From a virus, in the IMG/VR virus record IMGVR_UViG_3300025769_000077, positions 1 through 64,000 of that record: DNA of 64,000 nucleotides; one strand, written 5' to 3'. A program made the position numbers and the translations under genes. Below the pieces are notes generated by a model. That model made no database searches. It was given only the letters and a program-made list of their open reading frames with translations, and was not told the DNA's origin. How positions within the stretch are numbered: the stretch's first letter is position 1; every line of letters starts with the position of its first letter. Of the stretch, positions 41,647 through 52,602 are shown piece after piece.

Positions 41647-42147
41647 ATGACGGAGATATTAGAGATTTGTAAAAAATTTAATTTAACTGTTAATGAATAT
41701 GCGTTTATTTACTTAAAATTTTATGGCTTTGATATACTTAATTTAGCTGATGTAGGTGACCTTGTAGAAAAAGGTTATGCTTTTAATGATAACACTATCA
41801 ATATAAAAACAGCTAAAAAGATATTAGGTGTAGGAGATATCAACTTTTGGGAGTTTTATAACATATTTCCAAGTAAAGTAGACAGAGGAACACGTATTCT
41901 TAGAGCAGTTAATCCTGATTCTAAGATAGCAGATAAGCATAGAAGGAAATATTTATCTAAAGTAAAAAGTTTAAATGAACACAATAAAGCTTGTAGTCAA
42001 GCTAAGATATTTGTCAGTAGACAAATGAAAAAAGATGGTGGTTTATATATACCTACTTTAGATAGAATTCTTAACAATGCTGAATGGGAATCTTGGGATT
42101 TTAAAGAAGAAACTGGTGGACTAGCTTCTAAAATTAAAATGAAGTAA
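41647..42147 (+). CDS. Putative replication initiator / helicase loader
   Basis: FWEFYNIFP..YIPTLDRILNNAEWE pattern directly upstream of DnaB. Confidence 0.5.
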   Translation: MTEILEICKKFNLTVNEYAFIYLKFYGFDILNLADVGDLVEKGYAFNDNTINIKTAKKILGVGDINFWEFYNIFPSKVDRGTRILRAVNPDSKIADKHRRKYLSKVKSLNEHNKACSQAKIFVSRQMKKDGGLYIPTLDRILNNAEWESWDFKEETGGLASKIKMK

Positions 42148-43070
42148 TGGCTCAGAGAATAAAAAGTTACTACGAAGCGCAACTTGAAGAGAAGGAAATA
42201 TTAGAAAAAATAAGAAGTGGTGAAATTAAACCACTTAGAACTTCTCTTACTAAATTTAACAATGCAACATTTGACGGTATGATAGCTGGTCATATATGGG
42301 GTATAGTTGGTATGTCAGGTGCAGGTAAAACTAGAATAATGTCTCAGTTAATAGATGAGTTTATCAACTTACCTATTAACAGAAGTGAAGCTGTAGAAGT
42401 ATTGAATTTTAATTACGAAATGCAAGCTAGACGACTAGTACTATTAGATATAGCTAGAGAATTAGGTAAAACAACTAGAGAGATATATGGTTTAGGAGAT
42501 GTAGAAAGACTATCAGATGAAGAATTTGATAATCTTATGTCTCGTATGGCTATAGATCACAATGTTAAAGTTTATTTTGTAGATGATCCAGGTAACTCAA
42601 CAGTAATGAGAGAAACTATAGACGAGTTTATGTCAACTAGGCGGAATTCTCGCACAGTTCTAACTCTCGATCATACAGCTCTTACACCTTTTGGTGGACT
42701 GAGTGAGAAAGATGGTATACAAGATATAATGAAAATGTTTAATCAATCTAAGAAAGTTTACCCTAATTCAAGTTATATCATACTGTCTCAGATGAATAGA
42801 GATATAGAATCTAAAGAAAGGATTCTAGATCCTCAACTACATTATCCTAAGAAAGGTGATATATACGGTTCTGATGCATTGTATCAGTTCTCAGATATGA
42901 TTGTAGTTATTCATAGACCTGAGATACTTATGATTGAAAATTACGGACCTAACGGTGTAAATACCGAAGGTAAAGTTTTCTTGCACTTTATAAAAGCAAG
43001 AGATGGAGATAGAGAAATAGCAATATTAGAGAACTCTTTATCTACAGGAAAATTAGTACAAACGATCTAA
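42147..43070 (+). CDS. dnaB: DnaB-like replicative helicase
   Basis: GMSGAGKT, NYEM, LDH, ILSQMNR, IHRPE, KARDG. Confidence 0.9.
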   Translation: MAQRIKSYYEAQLEEKEILEKIRSGEIKPLRTSLTKFNNATFDGMIAGHIWGIVGMSGAGKTRIMSQLIDEFINLPINRSEAVEVLNFNYEMQARRLVLLDIARELGKTTREIYGLGDVERLSDEEFDNLMSRMAIDHNVKVYFVDDPGNSTVMRETIDEFMSTRRNSRTVLTLDHTALTPFGGLSEKDGIQDIMKMFNQSKKVYPNSSYIILSQMNRDIESKERILDPQLHYPKKGDIYGSDALYQFSDMIVVIHRPEILMIENYGPNGVNTEGKVFLHFIKARDGDREIAILENSLSTGKLVQTI

Positions 43071-43094: not shown

Positions 43095-43781
43095 ATGGCA
43101 AATAAAATCTTAATTTTAGCTGAGTCTGGAAGCGGAAAGACTTACGCTCAGCGTACACTAGACCCGAAATCTACATTTTATATCAATGCTGATCAAAAAT
43201 CTCTTTCATTTAAGGGATGGAGAAAGAATTATGTACAAGTAGATAAACCGGATGGGAAGTTGGATTTAGCAAAATCTAACTTATACTCAACTAAGAACCC
43301 TCAAACTGTTCAAGCAGTACTGAAAGCAATAAGTGACACTAGACCTGAAATAAAGGTTGGAGTAGTGGATACCTTATCTTTATTAATGGTTCATAGTTTT
43401 ATGAGTAAAGCTAAACAGACAGGCTATGGTAAGTTTACTGACATGGCTCTGGATGTTTATAATCTTATAGACTCAATAGATGGTCTTAGAGATGACTTAA
43501 CTGTAGTATTTACAGCTCATATTGAAAAGAATGATCAAGGTGATGTTGATATTGCTATTCCAGGTGGTAAACTATTAAAAGACAAAGCTAAAATAGCTGC
43601 AATGTTTACAATAGTTCTTGGAATGGAAGTGCAATATAATAAAGAAGATAACAAATACTTCTTTAAAACAATGACCGAAGGTTCAGATGTTTATAAGTCA
43701 CCATTTGGAATGTTTCCAAGTAGACTTATAGATAATGATATGAAGAAAGTAATTGAATATATACAGAAATATGAGTCATAA
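43095..43781 (+). CDS. AAA_24 / Sak4-like ATPase
   Basis: ILAESGSGKT, VVDT, FTAH, KSPFGMF. Confidence 0.8.
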   Translation: MANKILILAESGSGKTYAQRTLDPKSTFYINADQKSLSFKGWRKNYVQVDKPDGKLDLAKSNLYSTKNPQTVQAVLKAISDTRPEIKVGVVDTLSLLMVHSFMSKAKQTGYGKFTDMALDVYNLIDSIDGLRDDLTVVFTAHIEKNDQGDVDIAIPGGKLLKDKAKIAAMFTIVLGMEVQYNKEDNKYFFKTMTEGSDVYKSPFGMFPSRLIDNDMKKVIEYIQKYES

Positions 43782-45060: not shown

Positions 45061-46038
45061 ATGTTTAAAGGTAGTGTAATCAAAACTGTAACAGAAGAGT
45101 TAATATTATCACATACGACTGATTATGATATATATAATTATTACTTACCGGATTATACTCCAGGTAAAGGTTGTACAAACAGTCCTCTGAGAAATGATGG
45201 TATTCCTTCATTTGGTGTATTTTACGCTGACCGTTACAGTATATGGATGCACAAAGATCTTTCTACTGGAGAAAAAGGAAACTGCTTCACTTTTGTAAGA
45301 GATTTATTCTCTTATGGTACGTATTATGAAGCATTATTAAGAATAGCTCAAGACTTTGGTATAGCTGAAACAAAGGTAAAGTTAAAACCAAAGGTTAAAC
45401 CTAAACCTTCTTATTCTTATGGGTCTATACAGATAAGTGTAGTAAACAAAGAATTTGAAGAATATGATTTAGAATATTGGGATCAATACAAGATATCGAA
45501 AGATGTACTTAATCTATATAAGGTTGAGTCAGTGAGATATCTTGTATTCTCATCCCATTTCTCAACATGGTCTAAACCAGTGGATAAATATGCTTATGCA
45601 TATCCTGAAACTAAAGATGGTAATATTTGCTATAAGATATACCAACCTTATAGTAAAGACAAATGGATTAATAATTATAAACCTGGAACACATTCCGGAT
45701 ATGAACAACTACCTTCAACAGGTGAACTCCTTATAATTACCAAATCTTTAAAGGATGTAATGAGTATATATGCTACTACTGGTATTCCAGCTATAGCTGT
45801 TCAAAGTGAAAGTGCTAGTATAAAACAAGAAGTATTCGAGGAATATAAATCTAGATTTGCTAACTTAAGACTACTGTTTGATAATGACAAAGCAGGTAGA
45901 AAACTATCTAAAAAGTTTAGTGATAAGTATGATATTCCTGAAATGATTATACCTGAACAGTTTAAAAAAGATTATTCAGACAACGTCAAAGAATACGGAT
46001 CTAAAATCAGTAAAAATATTTTAATTGATTTAATATGA
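45061..46038 (+). CDS. DNA primase (DnaG/TOPRIM)
   Basis: SPLRND..PSF, IITKSLKDVM, FDNDKAG, KDYSD. Confidence 0.85.
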   Translation: MFKGSVIKTVTEELILSHTTDYDIYNYYLPDYTPGKGCTNSPLRNDGIPSFGVFYADRYSIWMHKDLSTGEKGNCFTFVRDLFSYGTYYEALLRIAQDFGIAETKVKLKPKVKPKPSYSYGSIQISVVNKEFEEYDLEYWDQYKISKDVLNLYKVESVRYLVFSSHFSTWSKPVDKYAYAYPETKDGNICYKIYQPYSKDKWINNYKPGTHSGYEQLPSTGELLIITKSLKDVMSIYATTGIPAIAVQSESASIKQEVFEEYKSRFANLRLLFDNDKAGRKLSKKFSDKYDIPEMIIPEQFKKDYSDNVKEYGSKISKNILIDLI

Positions 46039-46325
46039 ACGTTGGAATAAGAAATGTAAGTTATTTTAACGGCTTATATGATAATAAAAGTGAAGAAATA
46101 ATACTTCCTACTAACTTGTCTACCAAGTTAGATCTAAGTGCTGTTAAAATAATAAGAATGATGGGTTGCGTATATATGATTCCAACTAAAGAAGGATATT
46201 CTGTAAGGAATCATAAGATATCAATGCCTAGACAAATATTTAAGTTGTATTTTGGAACAACTAAAAAAACCAAGCTAAAATTAATTTTTAAAAAGAATAA
46301 AATTCAAATAACATGTCAAAATTAG
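46035..46325 (+). CDS. Hypothetical basic protein
   Basis: ORF overlapping neighbours. Confidence 0.5.
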   Translation: MNVGIRNVSYFNGLYDNKSEEIILPTNLSTKLDLSAVKIIRMMGCVYMIPTKEGYSVRNHKISMPRQIFKLYFGTTKKTKLKLIFKKNKIQITCQN

Positions 46326-46561
46326 TAACAATTTATTCATCAGTAGGAGAGTCTAAAAAAGAAGTTAGAACTGATGCTGAAAACTGGGGAGAACTTCAAG
46401 TAGACCTTAATGGAGCAGGTGTATCTATTGATGGAAAAAAAGTAATTCTTAAGCAAACAAAAGCAACTTTAGAAAGTTCTGAAGCTGTATTACCGACTAC
46501 AGATTTTGCTATTATGCTTATTCCAGGTAAAGTAAAATCTGGTAACGAAAAAAAGCACTAA
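46313..46561 (+). CDS. Putative ubiquitin-like (beta-grasp) protein ending KVKSG-NEKKH
   Basis: Size and strand-strand-helix pattern (VTIYSS/KEVRT/WGELQVDL); Gly near C-terminus; first gene before E2, JAB and E1. Confidence 0.6.
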   Translation: MSKLVTIYSSVGESKKEVRTDAENWGELQVDLNGAGVSIDGKKVILKQTKATLESSEAVLPTTDFAIMLIPGKVKSGNEKKH

Positions 46562-46637
46562 GTCCTTGTCGTACTAGAAAAGTCAATGATAATATTGCTA
46601 AGTTATTTAGTAGTATTCCTAGACAAGACGATAAGGA
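46549..46637 (+). promoter_or_regulatory. Candidate -1 programmed ribosomal frameshift signal
   Basis: In-frame A_AAA_AAG (46549-46555), 7-nt spacer, stem TCCTTGTCGT/ACGATAAGGA; -1 frame open to TAG 46695. Confidence 0.6.
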
Positions 46638-46684
46638 AGATAAAGATGCTCAAGCAGTTCTAAAAAGATTGAAGGAAGAATTCA

Positions 46685-47701
46685 ATGTCGACTAGTAATC
46701 AAAGATATGAAGGGAGTTATACACTCCCTTCTTCTTATAACAAGGATAATTATGATAAACTAATAGATTTACTGAACTTATATTTTAAGGATAATTGGTG
46801 TTTTAATAATGATGGTGTTGAATTTACAGGTATTGAGTTAGTTATTAAGTTTGATAGATTGACTATAAGTAATTCTAGAAATAGATCTCATACTATTAAT
46901 GATTTATATGTATTTTTATATATAAATGAACAAGGAATTCTTAACACTGCTAGTATTAAAGGTGGTCGTGGTAAATTAAGTTCAAGTGAATATGCTAGTA
47001 ATTATAAACATTCTCATTTAAGTGGAAATGTTTTAAAAAAAACATGGTTTTGTACCGGAAGTGGTCACATTAATGAAGCTTTAGCTAACTGTTGTGATGA
47101 ATTTAATATAGATAATTTTGATATTCTATTTGCTAATTTATTATCATTTGTTGAATGGGAATCCTTAGAAGGAGTTCCTTATAAATATATGAGTAATATT
47201 AGATTAAATGACGGAGTATCTTATTTATGTATTGATCAAGATTTAACACGTAGAATTATAGAAAAATTAAAAAAAGATGACTTTGATTTAAGTATTAGAA
47301 CTAATCCTACTGTTGTTATAAATCAGAAGTTTATAGATGCTTGTGTTAAAAACGGATGTCCTTTAGGTTACGAAGCAGATAATGGTAATTGGTGTACTGA
47401 TATATCACAACAATCTAGTAATAACTCATTAAAAACAGATTTTTCATTTAAAAACAAAAAAGTTATTTGTGAAATAACTTCAGATATAAATGATAAAAAA
47501 GAAATTGAAAAAAAACCATATATTAAACAAATAGAAAATGTTGCAAGAACAATTGAAACAAGAATCAAGCTTGAAAGAATCAAAGATTCCTTCTACTCCA
47601 GCTCTGAGGTTAGTGAATTCTGGAAAGAAATTCAAATTAGTGATTTCACAAGAACTGAAGTTGACAATAGAGAAACTATGCAAAGAAATTTCGCATATTG
47701 A
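46685..47701 (+). CDS. Prokaryotic E2-like conjugating protein
   Basis: YKHSHL..FCTGSG, the His..Cys arrangement of prokaryotic E2 families; operon context. Confidence 0.6.
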   Translation: MSTSNQRYEGSYTLPSSYNKDNYDKLIDLLNLYFKDNWCFNNDGVEFTGIELVIKFDRLTISNSRNRSHTINDLYVFLYINEQGILNTASIKGGRGKLSSSEYASNYKHSHLSGNVLKKTWFCTGSGHINEALANCCDEFNIDNFDILFANLLSFVEWESLEGVPYKYMSNIRLNDGVSYLCIDQDLTRRIIEKLKKDDFDLSIRTNPTVVINQKFIDACVKNGCPLGYEADNGNWCTDISQQSSNNSLKTDFSFKNKKVICEITSDINDKKEIEKKPYIKQIENVARTIETRIKLERIKDSFYSSSEVSEFWKEIQISDFTRTEVDNRETMQRNFAY

Positions 47702-48614
47702 GTGGTCAGGACCTATCTTTTACGAGATATTAGAAGGAAATATGAAAGATCCTTCTAAGTTGGTTATTAAAGCATTTGACTTTAGATTAATGGATATTGG
47801 TACTTCAGGATATACAGAGTATGAAACTGATGCTGATTTAGGTATGTTTATGTTTGATAATAATTACGTAGATAATATTAAGATGGGTCATATGCACTCT
47901 CATCATACTATGAAAGCTTACTTTTCTGGTACAGATAATGGAGAATTAATTGACAACGCACCTAACCATAACATCTACTTAAGTCTTATTGTAAATAATA
48001 AGATGGAAAACGTAGCAAGAATTGCTTATGTTGTTAAATCAAATATAGGTGGAACAGTAACAGTAAAAGATATAGATGGTTCTGATTTAGTTCAAGGATA
48101 TCAAGACGAAGATTACATTGAGTATTTAGATGCTGATATTGAATATGAGCAACCTACAATGGATTTTACAGATCTTGAAGCAAGAATTAAAGAATTACGT
48201 CCTAAACCTAAATCTTATGGTACTTTTATAACACCTGGAAAACATCGTCAAAGTGTATATGGTTTACAACAAACTTTAAAAGATACTCCTGGATTTGAAA
48301 TTGATAAGACTATAAAACTTAAACAATTTGTATCTAAGTTTCTTAAAGGAGTGAGTTTTAGTGGTACACTACAAGACGCAATGAGAGAATTAGCTCTAGC
48401 TTATCCTAGTTCTACTAGTTTTACTCCTTATGTGGAAAAACAACATAGAGAAGGATTTGGTAGAAGAGCTTATGAAACAGTATTTGGATTACCTTATAAA
48501 CAACAAGAGTATTACATAATTTTACTTGAAGCTATAATGATGATGGATGATTTAACTTATTGTCAATATCATTTTAACATGTTAATGTCTTGTTTTGAAT
48601 CATTTACAGACTAA
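47538..48614 (+). CDS. JAB/MPN metalloprotease (deubiquitinase-like)
   Basis: EWSG..GHMHSHHTMKAYFSGTD JAMM motif. Confidence 0.85.
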   Translation: MLQEQLKQESSLKESKIPSTPALRLVNSGKKFKLVISQELKLTIEKLCKEISHIEWSGPIFYEILEGNMKDPSKLVIKAFDFRLMDIGTSGYTEYETDADLGMFMFDNNYVDNIKMGHMHSHHTMKAYFSGTDNGELIDNAPNHNIYLSLIVNNKMENVARIAYVVKSNIGGTVTVKDIDGSDLVQGYQDEDYIEYLDADIEYEQPTMDFTDLEARIKELRPKPKSYGTFITPGKHRQSVYGLQQTLKDTPGFEIDKTIKLKQFVSKFLKGVSFSGTLQDAMRELALAYPSSTSFTPYVEKQHREGFGRRAYETVFGLPYKQQEYYIILLEAIMMMDDLTYCQYHFNMLMSCFESFTD

Positions 48615-49276
48615 TGAGTAGATTTGAAAGATTTAAAGAAGCAGCATGGTTCGGTATGAACGAATTACCTGTTGTTGTAGGTGGAGTAGGTGGAATCGGT
48701 TCTTGGGTAGCTTTATTGTTATCCAGAACCGGTTGTAACCTTATAATCTATGATATGGATATTGTAGAAGAAATAAATATGGCAGGACAATTATACAGTA
48801 CAGATAGTATAGATCAGTTAAAAATAGATGCTGTTACAGATATTGTAGATAAATTTAGTCCTGGCACTGAAATCGATTCTTTTGAAGAATACGATGAAGA
48901 AGGAATGGTAACTCCTATTATGTTTTCTTGTTTTGATAATATGAAAGCTAGAAAGCAAATGTTTGAAAACTGGAAGAAACAAGAAGATAGAGAGTTATTT
49001 ATAGACGGTAGACTTTTAGCTGAACATTATCAAGTGTTTGCTGTAAGAAAAAGTCAAGAAAAAGAATACGAAAAACACTTATTTTCTGATGATGAAGTAG
49101 AAGAAGCTCCTTGTTCGTATAAACAAACTTCACATTATGCTGCAGGAATTGCATCTAAAATGGTTGCTTGTTATACAAATTACTTAGCTTTAAAAGCAGA
49201 AGATGAAACTGCTGAAGTTCCTTTCTATCATGAGTTTATGGGTAAAATATTTTATTTAGAATGTTATTACGTATAA
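48614..49276 (+). CDS. ThiF/E1-like adenylating enzyme
   Basis: GGVGGIGS, YDMDIVEEINMAGQ, CFDNMKAR, IDGR, candidate catalytic Cys in APCSYK. Confidence 0.9.
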   Translation: MSRFERFKEAAWFGMNELPVVVGGVGGIGSWVALLLSRTGCNLIIYDMDIVEEINMAGQLYSTDSIDQLKIDAVTDIVDKFSPGTEIDSFEEYDEEGMVTPIMFSCFDNMKARKQMFENWKKQEDRELFIDGRLLAEHYQVFAVRKSQEKEYEKHLFSDDEVEEAPCSYKQTSHYAAGIASKMVACYTNYLALKAEDETAEVPFYHEFMGKIFYLECYYV

Positions 49277-49839
49277 ATAATAGTAACTATTCAAATATTG
49301 ATAGCAATACTTATTCTTTATGTAATTTTGCATTAAAACCTACAGATGATTATATTCCTTTACATTATCTAGTTAACATAGTGAATTTAAAGAGTAATCA
49401 TCACATAATTAACGTAGTTAAGCGTATTATTCCTTGTATATTTTCAATATCTGCAGTTGATTCTATGATTAACTTACATTATATGTATGCTCCTTTTAAT
49501 TATACAGTTAAAAATGTAAATTATAACGTTAATCCTGGTTTAATATTTGACAACAATGATAACATTATTGCATTAACTGTTGTAAAGAACATAGAAAACT
49601 TCTATAAAAAAACAGAATACACAATTCTTTTAAATGATGAAGTAGGTAAATCTATGATAAGCAGATTAATCAATAAAATGAAATCTAATATATTAACAGG
49701 AAAAGTAGTTATTGAGTATAAAACTCAAGAAGAATTGAATTTATTTAAAAAGTTACCAGAGAAAGTTAAGATAAACACATTAAAACAAAAACAAGAATAT
49801 GCTGAAAAGCTAAAATCATATGCATTCAGGAATAGTTGA
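49261..49839 (+). CDS. Hypothetical protein coupled to E1
   Basis: Overlaps E1 stop. Confidence 0.55.
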   Translation: MLLRINNSNYSNIDSNTYSLCNFALKPTDDYIPLHYLVNIVNLKSNHHIINVVKRIIPCIFSISAVDSMINLHYMYAPFNYTVKNVNYNVNPGLIFDNNDNIIALTVVKNIENFYKKTEYTILLNDEVGKSMISRLINKMKSNILTGKVVIEYKTQEELNLFKKLPEKVKINTLKQKQEYAEKLKSYAFRNS

Positions 49840-50386
49840 AAAGGGTGAAGGGTACGTTAAAATCACGTACCCTTTATATCCTGTCCACGTTCAAATTAAT
49901 GAACCTAAAAAAAACACTACTAAGAAAAAGTTTAAAAAAGTAAGTGGACAAAACATTTATTCACAAGGATCTCCTTTCTTTAGAAAGATAATAGTGCAAA
50001 AAATGCACGAATTCCTTTCTAACATAGAGAAGTTTGATTTGAGTTCATATCCAGTAGAAATAGAAATGGAATGGCACATGATACCGAACTTTCAAAGTAT
50101 AAGAATGATTGGGGAAAAACTATCATTAGGTAAACAAAAAGATCACTACAAACCTACATTTGATTGTATCAATCAATGGTTATGGGTGAAAACCTTTGAA
50201 GATGTCCTTGTTAAAGATTTAGAAATTTTACAGGATGATAATGTATCTTTTATATCATCAAGTGGTAAGATAACATTTGTACCTGTAGAAGAGTATGAAG
50301 ATCGTAAATTGGTATTTATTATTAAAGAAAGTGATTTAGAAACAAGAGAAAAATGGTTAAATTTGTTCAACTATGAGTATGACTAA
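49820..50386 (+). CDS. RusA-like Holliday junction resolvase
   Basis: FDCINQ..KTFEDVL..ILQDDNV pattern. Confidence 0.6.
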   Translation: MHSGIVEKGEGYVKITYPLYPVHVQINEPKKNTTKKKFKKVSGQNIYSQGSPFFRKIIVQKMHEFLSNIEKFDLSSYPVEIEMEWHMIPNFQSIRMIGEKLSLGKQKDHYKPTFDCINQWLWVKTFEDVLVKDLEILQDDNVSFISSSGKITFVPVEEYEDRKLVFIIKESDLETREKWLNLFNYEYD

Positions 50387-50448: not shown

Positions 50449-51378
50449 ATGACCGATTATCGAAAAGTAGACGCGCTGAATCAAAGCAGTCTAAAATTAC
50501 TACAAGCAGATCAGGATCCTTTGCTATTCAAAAAAGAACGAGATCCTAGTATCGCACCATGGTTTATATTTGGACAACTAGTTGATGTCCTTTTATTAGA
50601 ACCAGACAATTTTACAGATTATTTTTTTACCTGTAAAGATTATGAAGTACCTTCAGATACAATTAGAAAGATTGTAGATAATGTTTATGCTAATTCACCA
50701 GAAGGTGAATTGAAAGATAAAGATATAGATACAGTACTTAATAATATCGATTGGTATAACAATTGGAAACCTGCAACTAGAAAGAAGAAAGTTATTGATG
50801 AAGGAACTACTTATTTCAACAATTTGAAAAGTGGTAAACTTATAGTTAAAGCTTCTGAAGTAAGATATGCAGGACAGTGTGTTGAGAAAATTAAATCAAA
50901 TCCTTATTGCTCTAGTTTATTGAATTCATTTGAACCTAAAGTTCAGATATATTTCAATTATAGAGATATAGATTGTAAAGCGGAACTTGATTTTATAGTA
51001 AGAATCAACAATACAATAATACCTGTTGATGTTAAAACAACAAGTAAAGGTATTTATGACTTTAAGTATAGTTTCTATAAATATAGATACGATGTACAAG
51101 CAGCATTCTACACCTTAGCATTGGAAAAACAATTTCCTGATGCTATAATTGCACCTTATGTTTTTATTGTGGTAGATAAAGATACACAGGATGTAATGGT
51201 CTTTGAAACAACAAAGAATGTTATTAAAGGTGGTAAAGAAGGATTCATGTCTAAAACCGGTAAAATATATGAAGGTTACGACAAAATGATTGACAGATAT
51301 ATATTTCATGAAGAGTTTGGATATGATTATCCAATGGAGTATATGGTCAATGGTGTTAGTACAATTGATTTAATATGA
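50449..51378 (+). CDS. PD-(D/E)XK exonuclease (DUF3799/RecE-like)
   Basis: LNQSSLK, KAELD, VDVKTT, YDVQAAFY. Confidence 0.8.
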   Translation: MTDYRKVDALNQSSLKLLQADQDPLLFKKERDPSIAPWFIFGQLVDVLLLEPDNFTDYFFTCKDYEVPSDTIRKIVDNVYANSPEGELKDKDIDTVLNNIDWYNNWKPATRKKKVIDEGTTYFNNLKSGKLIVKASEVRYAGQCVEKIKSNPYCSSLLNSFEPKVQIYFNYRDIDCKAELDFIVRINNTIIPVDVKTTSKGIYDFKYSFYKYRYDVQAAFYTLALEKQFPDAIIAPYVFIVVDKDTQDVMVFETTKNVIKGGKEGFMSKTGKIYEGYDKMIDRYIFHEEFGYDYPMEYMVNGVSTIDLI

Positions 51379-51905
51379 GAAGAACTAAAACTTATGGATT
51401 TTTACTACCTTTATTAAAAATAAGTAAATTATCTTTTCAAAACAGGGTAATAAATGCTTATTTAGGAGATGATGAGTTCGACGGAGATCCTACTTATCGT
51501 ATTTTTGTAGTTCACAGTAACTACCAAGATTCAAAGTTTTCCGAATGGGAAAACCAATTAATGAATTTAGATCATATTGTAGCAAGCTATGATATAAATG
51601 AATCACAACAGTGTGTCAAAGTATTTGACATACCTGAAGAATTCCATAGGGATTATGAAAAGTTTTTATCGGGGAAATATTCTGAAATGTCTTTAGCTGC
51701 ACAGAAAACAGTTGAATCATTTCATGGGGATAAATTCTATACAATGGTCTTTACTAAAGACCCTAAAAGAAAAGCTTATGTAGAAGCTTTAATAGGACAA
51801 AAAATAGGAAAACAAGAAGTACACAGTATACCCAATATACAACAAGAGACTCTAGATAAAGAAAAGAAAACAAAAATTAAAAATATATCACATGTTAAGT
51901 CATGA
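51375..51905 (+). CDS. Conserved hypothetical protein
   Basis: FLLPLL..NAYL..FLSGKYSEM. Confidence 0.6.
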   Translation: MRRTKTYGFLLPLLKISKLSFQNRVINAYLGDDEFDGDPTYRIFVVHSNYQDSKFSEWENQLMNLDHIVASYDINESQQCVKVFDIPEEFHRDYEKFLSGKYSEMSLAAQKTVESFHGDKFYTMVFTKDPKRKAYVEALIGQKIGKQEVHSIPNIQQETLDKEKKTKIKNISHVKS

Positions 51906-52602
51906 ATTTTATGAAAACAAGATTCATAAGAATTGGTTGTCTAAATACGATGACTTCTTCTTAGGTGACGACATGCAAAAAGCATTTAAAGACGTTGTAA
52001 CGGACGCAAAACAGTTTAAGATATATCCAAAGTCATTGGATATGTTTAACGCGTTTAAATACGATCCTAACAACGTTAAAGTCGTAATCTTAGGACAAGA
52101 CCCTTATCATAATTTTATGAATGGTAAAGCAGTAGCTCATGGTCTTTCCTTTTCGTATAAAAAAGCTTCTAATATAGATGCATACGAACCACCTTCTCTT
52201 CGTAATATACTTAGAGAAGTAGAAACAGATATTTATGATGGTATGCAATTAGTACCTGGAGATACTAATTTAACAAGGTGGGCTGAACAAGGAGTATTAC
52301 TTCTTAATACAGCATTAACCGTAAGAGCAGGTCAAGCAGGAAGTCATACAAATATTTGGAAAAAACCTATAAAGTTATTTATAGAACAATTTTCTAAAGA
52401 TAATCCACATGTTATATGGATGTTATGGGGAAATCATGCTAAATCATTTAAGGATATAATTACACCTGGTCATATACTTGAATCAGGTCATCCTTCTCCT
52501 TTATCAGCTAATAAAGGATTATGGTTTGGTAATAAGCATTTCAGTAAAGCAAATGATATAATAGAAAAGCAAAATGGAAAAGATTACATTATTAAGTGGT
52601 AG
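51892..52602 (+). CDS. ung: Uracil-DNA glycosylase, family 1
   Basis: VKVVILGQDPYH, PPSLRNI, QGVLLLNTALT, HPSPLS. Confidence 0.95.
   Translation: MLSHEFYENKIHKNWLSKYDDFFLGDDMQKAFKDVVTDAKQFKIYPKSLDMFNAFKYDPNNVKVVILGQDPYHNFMNGKAVAHGLSFSYKKASNIDAYEPPSLRNILREVETDIYDGMQLVPGDTNLTRWAEQGVLLLNTALTVRAGQAGSHTNIWKKPIKLFIEQFSKDNPHVIWMLWGNHAKSFKDIITPGHILESGHPSPLSANKGLWFGNKHFSKANDIIEKQNGKDYIIKW

Follow-up and report, generated by a model that had tools for sequence, protein, structure and literature searches.

A candidate ubiquitin-like protein conjugation cassette in the replication module of crAss-like phages

Can a virus of bacteria carry a complete ubiquitin-like conjugation system of its own? To our knowledge, the only prokaryotic systems for which ubiquitin-like conjugation has been demonstrated are cellular ones that act against phages (Bil and CBASS Cap2); for Bub, it has been inferred. 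The question is raised by a stretch of 64,000 nucleotides (nt), hereafter called the window, which is the first 64 kb of the IMG/VR virus record IMGVR_UViG_3300025769_000077. The record is 98,405 bp long, is estimated to be 98% complete and belongs to a crAss-like phage. Four co-oriented and tightly packed genes occupy positions 46313–49276 on the + strand (Table 1). They encode, in this order, a ubiquitin-like protein (Ubl), a protein with a predicted UBC fold (the E2 candidate), a JAMM/JAB protease and a ThiF-type E1. The original prediction, made from the letters of the window, had named these four adjacent genes and their motifs, and all of them are present at those positions. Judged from sequences and predicted models, the cassette is best read, with a probability of about 60%, as a phage-encoded ubiquitin-like protein conjugation system that would be expressed with the replication genes.

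The structures of the Ubl and of the E2 candidate were predicted with AlphaFold2 (AF2) from alignments of 58–60 relatives drawn from IMG/VR loci. The Ubl model has a predicted local distance difference test (pLDDT) value of 81.9 and a beta-beta-alpha-beta-beta topology. Foldseek matched it to chains of ubiquitin, NEDD8, SUMO, FAT10, UBX and MoaD with a probability of 1.00 and a TM-score of about 0.6. In VIA, an exhaustive structural comparison against 48,161 chains of which the top 50 were inspected, Z values from 9.2 to 7.4 were obtained over 50 ubiquitin-fold chains, and the best alignment comprised 70 residues at 2.0 Å. The first gene is predicted by these comparisons to encode a beta-grasp ubiquitin-like protein, which is the fold that had been set beforehand as a check on it. 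The sequence searches gave a match to phrog_15560 (5.5e-10), a PHROG of unknown function, and no match to any Pfam, NCBIfam or PADLOC model. The family profile found only chance coiled-coil matches among PDB sequences.

The glycine at the end of the beta-grasp domain, Gly77, is invariant in the relatives (66/66), and Lys75 and Ser76 are each kept in 57 of the 66. Gly77 is never C-terminal. The tails beyond it range from 1 residue (KSGK followed by the stop codon) to ~250 residues in the relatives. Because the glycine is invariant and always has residues beyond it, the sequences strongly imply that the Ubl starts out as a precursor and is trimmed after Gly77, as the original prediction had proposed.

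The AF2 model of the E2 candidate has a pLDDT of 81.5 and a predicted TM-score (pTM) of 0.71. It runs from a helix (residues 20–34) through four strands (38–99) to a loop with Y107-x-H109-S-H111, then to Cys123 and two helices (128–157). The order of these elements is that of the UBC core (alpha1, four strands, active-site loop, Cys, alpha2, alpha3). Cys123 is placed between the strand 92–99 and the helix 128–138, and His111 lies upstream of it in an HPN-like placement. The VIA top 50 were mostly E2, UEV and RWD chains with Z values of 6.6–4.4 over model residues ~15–172. The best match was the UEV domain of Tsg101 (Z 6.6, 127 residues aligned), and bacterial BubB (9eav_D, Z 5.4) and Cap2 (Z 4.7) were also among the 50. 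Foldseek returned the same families, including UFC1, with weak E values of 0.2–0.9. The motifs of the protein are Y107-K-H109-S-H111 ... F-C123-T-G-S-G, followed by E159-S-x-x-G-x-P165. His111 is conserved in 70/70 sequences, Cys123 in 69/70 and His109 in 57/70; Tyr107, Ser110, His111, Cys123, Gly125, Glu159 and Pro165 are near-invariant across 58–70 sequences. Taken together, the uniform structural matches, the invariant His111 and Cys123 and the operon context make it probable that the second gene product has a UBC-like fold with a catalytic-type His/Cys pair. This predicted core was the second fold named beforehand as a check.

Sequence comparison placed the E2 candidate in a family of its own. 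Its only matches were PHROGs of unknown function, and none of the 58 family members gave a match at E ≤ 0.1 to Pfam, including UQ_con and Prok-E2_A to Prok-E2_E. The family comprises 3368 representative clusters (50% identity), of which 3170 are below 1e-10, and the matches are unnamed. With so many clusters, the family is therefore old and under selection. No bridge from it to other E2s was visible in the representative-cluster search, and the family is discrete. A perfect 9-bp hairpin with five G-C pairs and a T-rich stretch was also observed at 46709–46731 of the window, within codons 9–16 of the E2 gene. A simple scan rates it as terminator-like, and its role could be attenuation or the modulation of translation.

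The best structural matches of the E2 model, the UEV and RWD domains, are non-catalytic. They would fit a scheme in which the Ubl is activated and classical protein tagging does not follow. In such a scheme, the UBC protein would be a non-catalytic partner or a terminal acceptor, or the acceptor would be something other than a protein, or JAB would control the release of the tail with the Ubl as a removable chaperone. The last version can be likened to a proposal for the lambda tail assembly protein I, and Iyer et al. (2006, PMC1779556) proposed the release of Ubl by JAB in phage tail modules. However, Cys123 (69/70) and His111 (70/70) set the phage family apart from UEV and RWD domains, and a complete adenylating E1 would be pointless in a pure cleavage module. 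A cassette without protein tagging is thus considered unlikely.

The third gene product carries the full JAMM motif (E55 and H120-x-H122-x7-S130-x2-D133), and these five residues are kept in 72–73 of 73 sequences. Its match to Pfam Prok-JAB is 1.3e-3 with 19 bits, under the cut-off of 25. The other matches are PADLOC JAB (4.8e-3), phrog_16107 and phrog_21448. The genes around it are packed closely. The E2 and JAB genes overlap by 164 nt (47538–47701), the JAB stop and the E1 start share 1 nt, and the E1 gene overlaps the next open reading frame (ORF) by 16 nt. The sole intergenic space within the four-gene cassette is the 123 nt from Ubl to E2. In crAss001 and FpV4, the E2/JAB overlap is 60–125 nt as annotated or seen. 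The final ~18 residues of E2, which lie in the zone of overlap with JAB, are modelled at a pLDDT below 50.

The fourth gene product is a minimal E1. It matched Pfam ThiF at 4.4e-17 with 62.5 bits, over the cut-off of 28.1. A profile of seven sequences, the window E1 and six phage or viral relatives, was compared with the PDB; UBA5 was the best match (1.7e-14), followed by PaaA, MccB, ThiF, UBA3, MoeB, Cap2 and BubCD (to 1e-9). At least 68 of 72 sequences keep Arg6, G24xGGxG29, Asp47, Asp49, Asn55, Gln59, Lys70, Asp108, Arg113 and Cys167, the last of which is invariant (72/72). By the phage-family hidden Markov model (HMM), G24/G26/G29 correspond to G35/G37/G40 of E. coli ThiF, D47 to D59, K70 to K83, D108 to D127 and R113 to R132. 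Arg6 aligns with the arginine of the UBA5 'LKRM'. The only PADLOC match was to the generic adenylation domain of Cap2-type E1-E2 models, with a best E value of 5e-9. An extra N-terminal region of 110–195 residues is found in the E1 of the crAss001/cr106 clade and of some others (L004:5536-6693, L003:4482-5693, L050:5419-6675 among the related loci), and it is lacking in the 220-residue E1 of the window.

Public records label the E1 as 'thiamine biosynthesis protein' and the Ubl and E2 as 'hypothetical'. The label points to a sulfur-carrier system. The E1 would then adenylate the Ubl for thiocarboxylation in the style of ThiS, MoaD or CysO, JAB would merely unmask the glycine, as Mec+ does for CysO, and the sulfur would be destined for a small molecule, for tRNA or for phage DNA. 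The E1 is indeed nearest to ThiF-type enzymes by sequence (NCBIfam PRK08644 1.6e-16 and TIGR02354 2.3e-13, both far under the cut-offs), and bacterial sets of JAB, E1 and Ubl without an E2 perform sulfur chemistry (Iyer et al. 2006, PMC1779556). However, the invariant UBC-fold His/Cys protein, which stands within the operon in nearly all loci, is left unexplained by sulfur transfer. The four zinc cysteines of ThiF and MoeB are missing from the E1. ThiS and MoaD typically end in GG, whereas the Ubl domain ends in KSG. The original prediction had remarked that no thiamine or molybdopterin genes are nearby, and this extends to the whole phage: no ThiG/ThiH, MoaE, rhodanese or cysteine desulfurase was found in the 98-kb genome, while the control genomes were positive, and host enzymes are possible. 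A sulfur-carrier role is highly improbable. Thiamine or molybdopterin biosynthesis was likewise rejected.

The arrangement of the genes was surveyed in 80 IMG/VR loci that were retrieved by the E1 profile. Ubl, E2, JAB and E1 stand in the same order and orientation in ~75 of the 80, and most of the others end at a contig edge. Since the same families recur in the same order in so many loci, the four-gene arrangement is far beyond chance, and chance or non-coding ORFs were rejected as an explanation. The same order is found in crAss001, cr106_1, bajarodcaudo virus 1 and the Flavobacterium phage FpV4 (Flavobacterium psychrophilum). In crAss001, the primase Gp80 is immediately followed by the four genes, which are Gp79, Gp78, Gp77 (annotated as 'metalloprotease') and Gp76 (annotated as 'thiamine biosynthesis protein ThiF'). 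The cassette adjoins the primase gene in every related locus, with the UDG gene on either side. UDG switches sides while the four genes stay contiguous; therefore, the four genes move as one unit.

The cassette genes are also widely distributed. A profile scan of IMG/VR for the E1 found at least 506 contigs. A protein-level search found the E1 in 79 phage records, which include crAss001 and its relatives, DAC15, several 'cr' gut phages, the FpV4 group and a few jumbo phages of Xanthomonas and Erwinia. No near-identical DNA was found among 50,697 phage records. Partial sets were observed as well. In the Xanthomonas jumbo phage PhiXhv-15 (L006:2247-5621), the E1 follows an 892-residue hypothetical protein, and no profile match to Ubl, E2 or JAB was seen. 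A 126-kb IMG/VR contig (L007:4961-6681) has JAB and E1 only.

Cellular copies were sought with the motif WESLEGxPY, which sees one clade. It gave 22 matches, of which three are real, and no clear cellular operon of the cassette was found in this one-clade scan. Two of the three real matches are on contigs of 2.7 kb and 54.5 kb binned into metagenome-assembled genomes (MAGs), and the third is a truncated fragment beside a CRISPR array. On the Bacilli MAG contig JBMNLZ010000002.1 (G001:C2; L113:11636-18760, L113:18689 to L114:4095), a CRISPR array of 98 repeats (Rfam CRISPR-DR7) stops where a 5'-truncated Ubl starts. Homologues of E2, JAB, E1 and UDG follow, with no further window-like phage gene nearby, and next come four paralogues of ~1100 residues with Ig repeats and an amidase domain. 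Two explanations offer themselves for the junction: the long-read assembly is chimeric, or a piece of phage DNA was inserted, unusually, where the array ends.

The same chemistry could serve a purpose in conflict, either as a Bil-like weapon against co-infecting phages or as counter-defence that tags immune proteins of the host. The characterised bacterial relatives Bil, CBASS Cap2/Cap3 and probably Bub all act in the conflict of phage and host (PMC11601596; 10.1101/2023.09.26.559546). The N-terminal region of E2 varies from ~15 to 310 residues among the relatives, as would be expected of a target-recognition part in an arms race. However, the cassette keeps a fixed place between the primase and the exonuclease or UDG genes in dozens of divergent genomes and does not lie in variable islands. 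The Ubl and E2 are without a PADLOC match, and that of the E1 is to a generic domain. A conflict purpose seems quite unlikely on this evidence. The original prediction had proposed counter-defence, exclusion of competitors or replisome control, and the one observation that bears on these roles is the fixed position in the replication module. This position favours a part in the phage's own replication or in host takeover. As a best guess, the cassette would serve to regulate some protein of the phage or of the host while the genome is replicated, since its place is fixed in the block of primase, exonuclease and UDG genes rather than in a variable accessory island.

Protein conjugation as the activity of the cassette is supported by the Ubl fold with its invariant and non-terminal glycine, the UBC-like His and Cys, the JAMM motif, the adenylation residues of the E1 and the synteny. 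From these features, we infer the following chemical steps and the existence of one or more targets. At first, JAB would cut the Ubl precursor after Gly77, and the tail lost would be 5 residues in the zero frame or ~50 residues after a -1 frameshift. Second, the minimal E1, probably a homodimer like ThiF, MoeB and UBA5, would adenylate the carboxylate of Gly77 with ATP and Mg. Third, the Ubl would move as a thioester, possibly via Cys167 of the E1, onto Cys123 of the E2 with the assistance of His111. Fourth, the E2 would hand the Ubl to lysines of the target or targets without an E3. No E3 is encoded, and therefore the variable N- and C-terminal regions of the E2 would choose the target. Finally, JAB may also undo the tagging. 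Bil offers a precedent for this scheme, as its JAB pre-processes the Ubl to the bare glycine, its E2 acts without an E3 and its gene order is Ubl-E2-DUB-E1 (10.1101/2023.09.26.559546; PMC11601596).

Several points weigh against conjugation. The cascade is read here from genes and predicted models, and neither a target nor an E3 or a reader protein can be recognised. The UBC assignment comes from a predicted model whose scores are middling (VIA Z of 6.6 at most; Foldseek E 0.2–0.9), and no sequence method among Pfam, NCBIfam, PADLOC and the PDB profile ties the E2 to known E2 families. The second half of the E1 has no HMM alignment to ThiF. Cys167 stands opposite Cys184 of ThiF by global alignment, with a z of 1.8 that is not significant. 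In addition, the E1 has a glycine where the NLxRQ motif of MoeB and ThiF has R73.

Among the described systems, Bil (BilABCD, types I and II; Chambers et al., 10.1101/2023.09.26.559546; PMC11601596) is alike in having four parts in the same order, a Ubl with a C-terminal extension that JAB removes to a bare glycine, an E2 cysteine with a nearby histidine, and no E3. However, the Bil E1 is a multidomain protein (IAD-AAD-CYS) with a zinc site, whereas the phage E1 is one adenylation domain of 220 residues that lacks the zinc cysteines. The conserved residues of type II BilB run in the order C138, E144, H146 and H151 (CEHH) with the cysteine first. In the phage E2, the order is H109, H111, C123 and E159, with the histidines 12–14 residues before the cysteine as in the eukaryotic HPN...C. 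The phage Ubl and E2 have no sequence match to any defence model. Furthermore, the phage cassette belongs to a replication module of a lytic-type phage rather than to a defence island of bacteria.

Bub (formerly 6E/DUF6527; Ye et al. 2024, PMC11601596) shares an E1, BubCD, without a separate Cys domain. The match of BubB to the phage E2 model is given above, and the E1 profile finds BubCD at 6e-10. Bub differs in its use of serine oxyesters, in its Ubl-E2 and JAB-E1 fusions and in the BubE serine protease. In contrast, the phage genes are separate, their cysteines are invariant and the neighbouring ORFs have no DUF6527 match. The eukaryotic UBA5-UFC1-UFM1 system is alike in three respects: UBA5, the best PDB match of the E1 profile, works as a homodimer with one adenylation domain, UFM1 likewise starts as a precursor and is trimmed, and UFC1 is among the Foldseek matches of the E2 model. 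However, only the N-terminal Rossmann half of the E1 aligns, and UFM1 and UFC1 have no detectable sequence relation to the phage Ubl and E2. The trimming enzyme of UFM1 is a cysteine protease, whereas that of the phage would be the JAMM metalloprotease.

ThiF-ThiS and MoeB-MoaD share adenylation residues that correspond one-to-one between the phage E1 and E. coli ThiF (220 versus 251 residues), and a beta-grasp partner that ends in glycine. The phage operon differs by the additional UBC-fold His/Cys protein and JAB and by the lack of a zinc site and of sulfur-transfer partners, and all NCBIfam ThiF and MoeB scores of its E1 are far under the cut-offs. The tail assembly proteins I and K of lambda and T1 (Ubl plus JAB/NlpC) comprise a phage Ubl with a conserved glycine and a C-terminal domain, adjoining a JAB peptidase predicted to cut there (Iyer et al. 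2006, PMC1779556). According to this source, the phage tail modules have Ubl and JAB only, with neither E1 nor E2, whereas the window cassette has both and is in the replication module. In CBASS Cap2/Cap3, E1 and E2 are fused, while they are separate in the phage, and no CD-NTase was seen among the neighbours of the cassette. The PRTRC scores are 30.7 bits against a cut-off of 144.75 for PRTRC_ThiF and 16.2 against 101.8 for PRTRC_A. By its sequences, the cassette resembles Bil in its presumed working and is outside Bil, Bub, Cap2/Cap3, PRTRC and lambda gpI/gpK. The earlier comparison with Bil and Cap2/Cap3 can be kept as an analogy of mechanism and not as membership.

The tail beyond Gly77 takes several forms. 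Long tails often open with a recurring LSYxEL...KNYT..T..L..LL, which resembles a helix-extended-helix DNA-binding element, and a Pfam search of the long tails gave only a weak SAP match (0.052) in one locus. In 61 loci, the E2 gene starts at most 100 nt after the Ubl, and all 61 have long-tailed Ubls of 134–326 residues. In loci with a short Ubl, a space of 150–250 nt before E2 holds a small ORF of 36–61 codons, and in five of these loci its ATG overlaps the Ubl stop as TAATG. The tail is fused in the former and separate in the latter; therefore, it can be fused or split off, and by the sequences the gene fission or fusion falls exactly at the predicted JAB cleavage site. The tails also bear on the scheme without protein tagging. 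Their length and the helix-extended-helix-like motif shared by many of them suggest a function of their own, and a tail may be fused, split into a small ORF or reached by a frameshift. However, the tails of several relatives have only 1–3 residues, and therefore the tail is dispensable and the glycine is not.

The Ubl of the window fits neither the fused nor the split layout. Its zero-frame tail is followed by features of a -1 frameshift site. A slippery heptamer, A_AAA_AAG, is at 46549–46555, directly after the Gly77 codon region. After a spacer of 7 nt, there is a stem-loop at 46563–46637 of -21.5 kcal/mol (z -4.2), and none of 200 shuffled sequences was as stable (0/200). The -1 frame has 46 codons and fills the gap between Ubl and E2 exactly, with its TAG at 46693–46695 overlapping the E2 start. 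It has no ATG or GTG, and its sole TTG is codon 39. A candidate -1 frameshift here would give the Ubl a tail of ~50 residues that resembles the tails of most relatives. Compared with the relatives' tails, the -1-frame product gave E values of 0.57 and 0.29, at ranks 2 and 3 of 1502 frames, which is not significant. An assembly error in the A7 homopolymer is the alternative to a programmed frameshift.

Table 1. Coordinates of the cassette and of the features around it (window positions unless a related locus is named)
Feature	Coordinates	Strand	Length	Remarks
Ubl precursor	46313..46561	+	82 aa	predicted beta-grasp domain, residues 1-77, ending K75-S76-G77; zero-frame tail NEKKH, 5 residues
E2 candidate	46685..47701	+	338 aa	predicted UBC-like core ~15-175; C-terminal domain ~185-320 without recognised fold
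JAB/JAMM metalloprotease	47538..48614	+	358 aa	catalytic domain ~30-165; C-terminal half unassigned
Minimal E1	48614..49276	+	220 aa	single ThiF-type adenylation domain, invariant Cys167
Candidate -1 frameshift region	46546..46695	+		slippery heptamer, stem-loop and open -1 frame
Small ORF between short Ubl and E2 (examples; there are others)	L008:3292-3438, L009:1527-1682, L032:2762-2911, L082:3083-3190			relatives' loci
Fifth-position ORF	49261..49839	+	192 aa	cassette membership not established
DnaB-like helicase	42147-43070			replication/recombination block around the cassette
Sak4-like annealing protein	43095-43781			same replication/recombination block
Primase	45061-46038			upstream of the cassette
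Exonuclease VIII-like PD-(D/E)XK protein	50449-51378			downstream of the cassette
Homologue of the UDG genes annotated in crAss001 and FpV4	51892-52602			downstream of the cassette

On the sequences and models, the cassette is real and widespread, and as far as the literature shows it is unpublished. No description of a phage cassette of Ubl, E2, JAB and E1 was found in the literature searches, and a 2026 virome preprint refers briefly to a gut-phage family with a resemblance to UBA5 (10.64898/2026.03.05.709809). A broader proposal can be made, which we put at even odds. According to it, Ubl tagging of their own would be a core part of replication in many crAss-like phages, among them crAss001, DAC15 and no fewer than 500 related viral contigs, and in the FpV4 group. 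They would use a minimal E1, an E2 unrelated in sequence to those described, and a Ubl tail that is provided interchangeably, being fused, encoded by a separate overlapping small ORF or, in the window phage, reached by a programmed -1 frameshift. If this is true, phage replication would have a further layer of regulation, and the cassette would be the first ubiquitin-like conjugation system of a virus of bacteria. With a full set of genes on the phage side, fixed in the replication module, the cellular anti-phage picture would be reversed. Few phage groups in the human gut are as abundant as the crAss-like phages, and the relatives include phages of aquatic Bacteroidota. The cassette would point to an unrecognised step in the replication of these phages or in their takeover of the host, and the very small pair of E1 and E2 offers a view on how ubiquitination evolved. 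The widespread misannotation of the E1 as 'thiamine biosynthesis protein' would also be corrected. Because crAss001, DAC15 and FpV4 are in culture, the cassette is directly testable.

The + strand carries the genes of the window from ~26 kb onward, and the replication and recombination genes on both sides of the cassette are listed in Table 1. The original prediction had taken the ORF that overlaps the end of the E1 gene for a coupled gene and a possible specificity factor. This could not be upheld, as the ORF has no homologue in the 80 related loci. It has no match in Pfam, NCBIfam, PHROG or PADLOC, and no significant relative was found with jackhmmer, hhalign, Atlas or a search of 5.8 billion proteins, in which a single protein of 98% identity appeared. 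Most relatives have a gene after E1. Its subfamilies were found in 56 of 84 loci, and profile-profile comparison connects them with a probability of 92–96%; this post-E1 family has no Pfam match. The ORF of the window aligned with it over its full length in hhalign (176 columns) with a weak P of 0.016, and by this alignment it may be a fast-evolving member of the family. Homologues of the following ORF, which has 188 residues (49820–50386), occur in 11 related loci, where they lie in different places, sometimes upstream of the Ubl and sometimes well downstream of the E1. By this distribution, it is a mobile small gene within the replication module.

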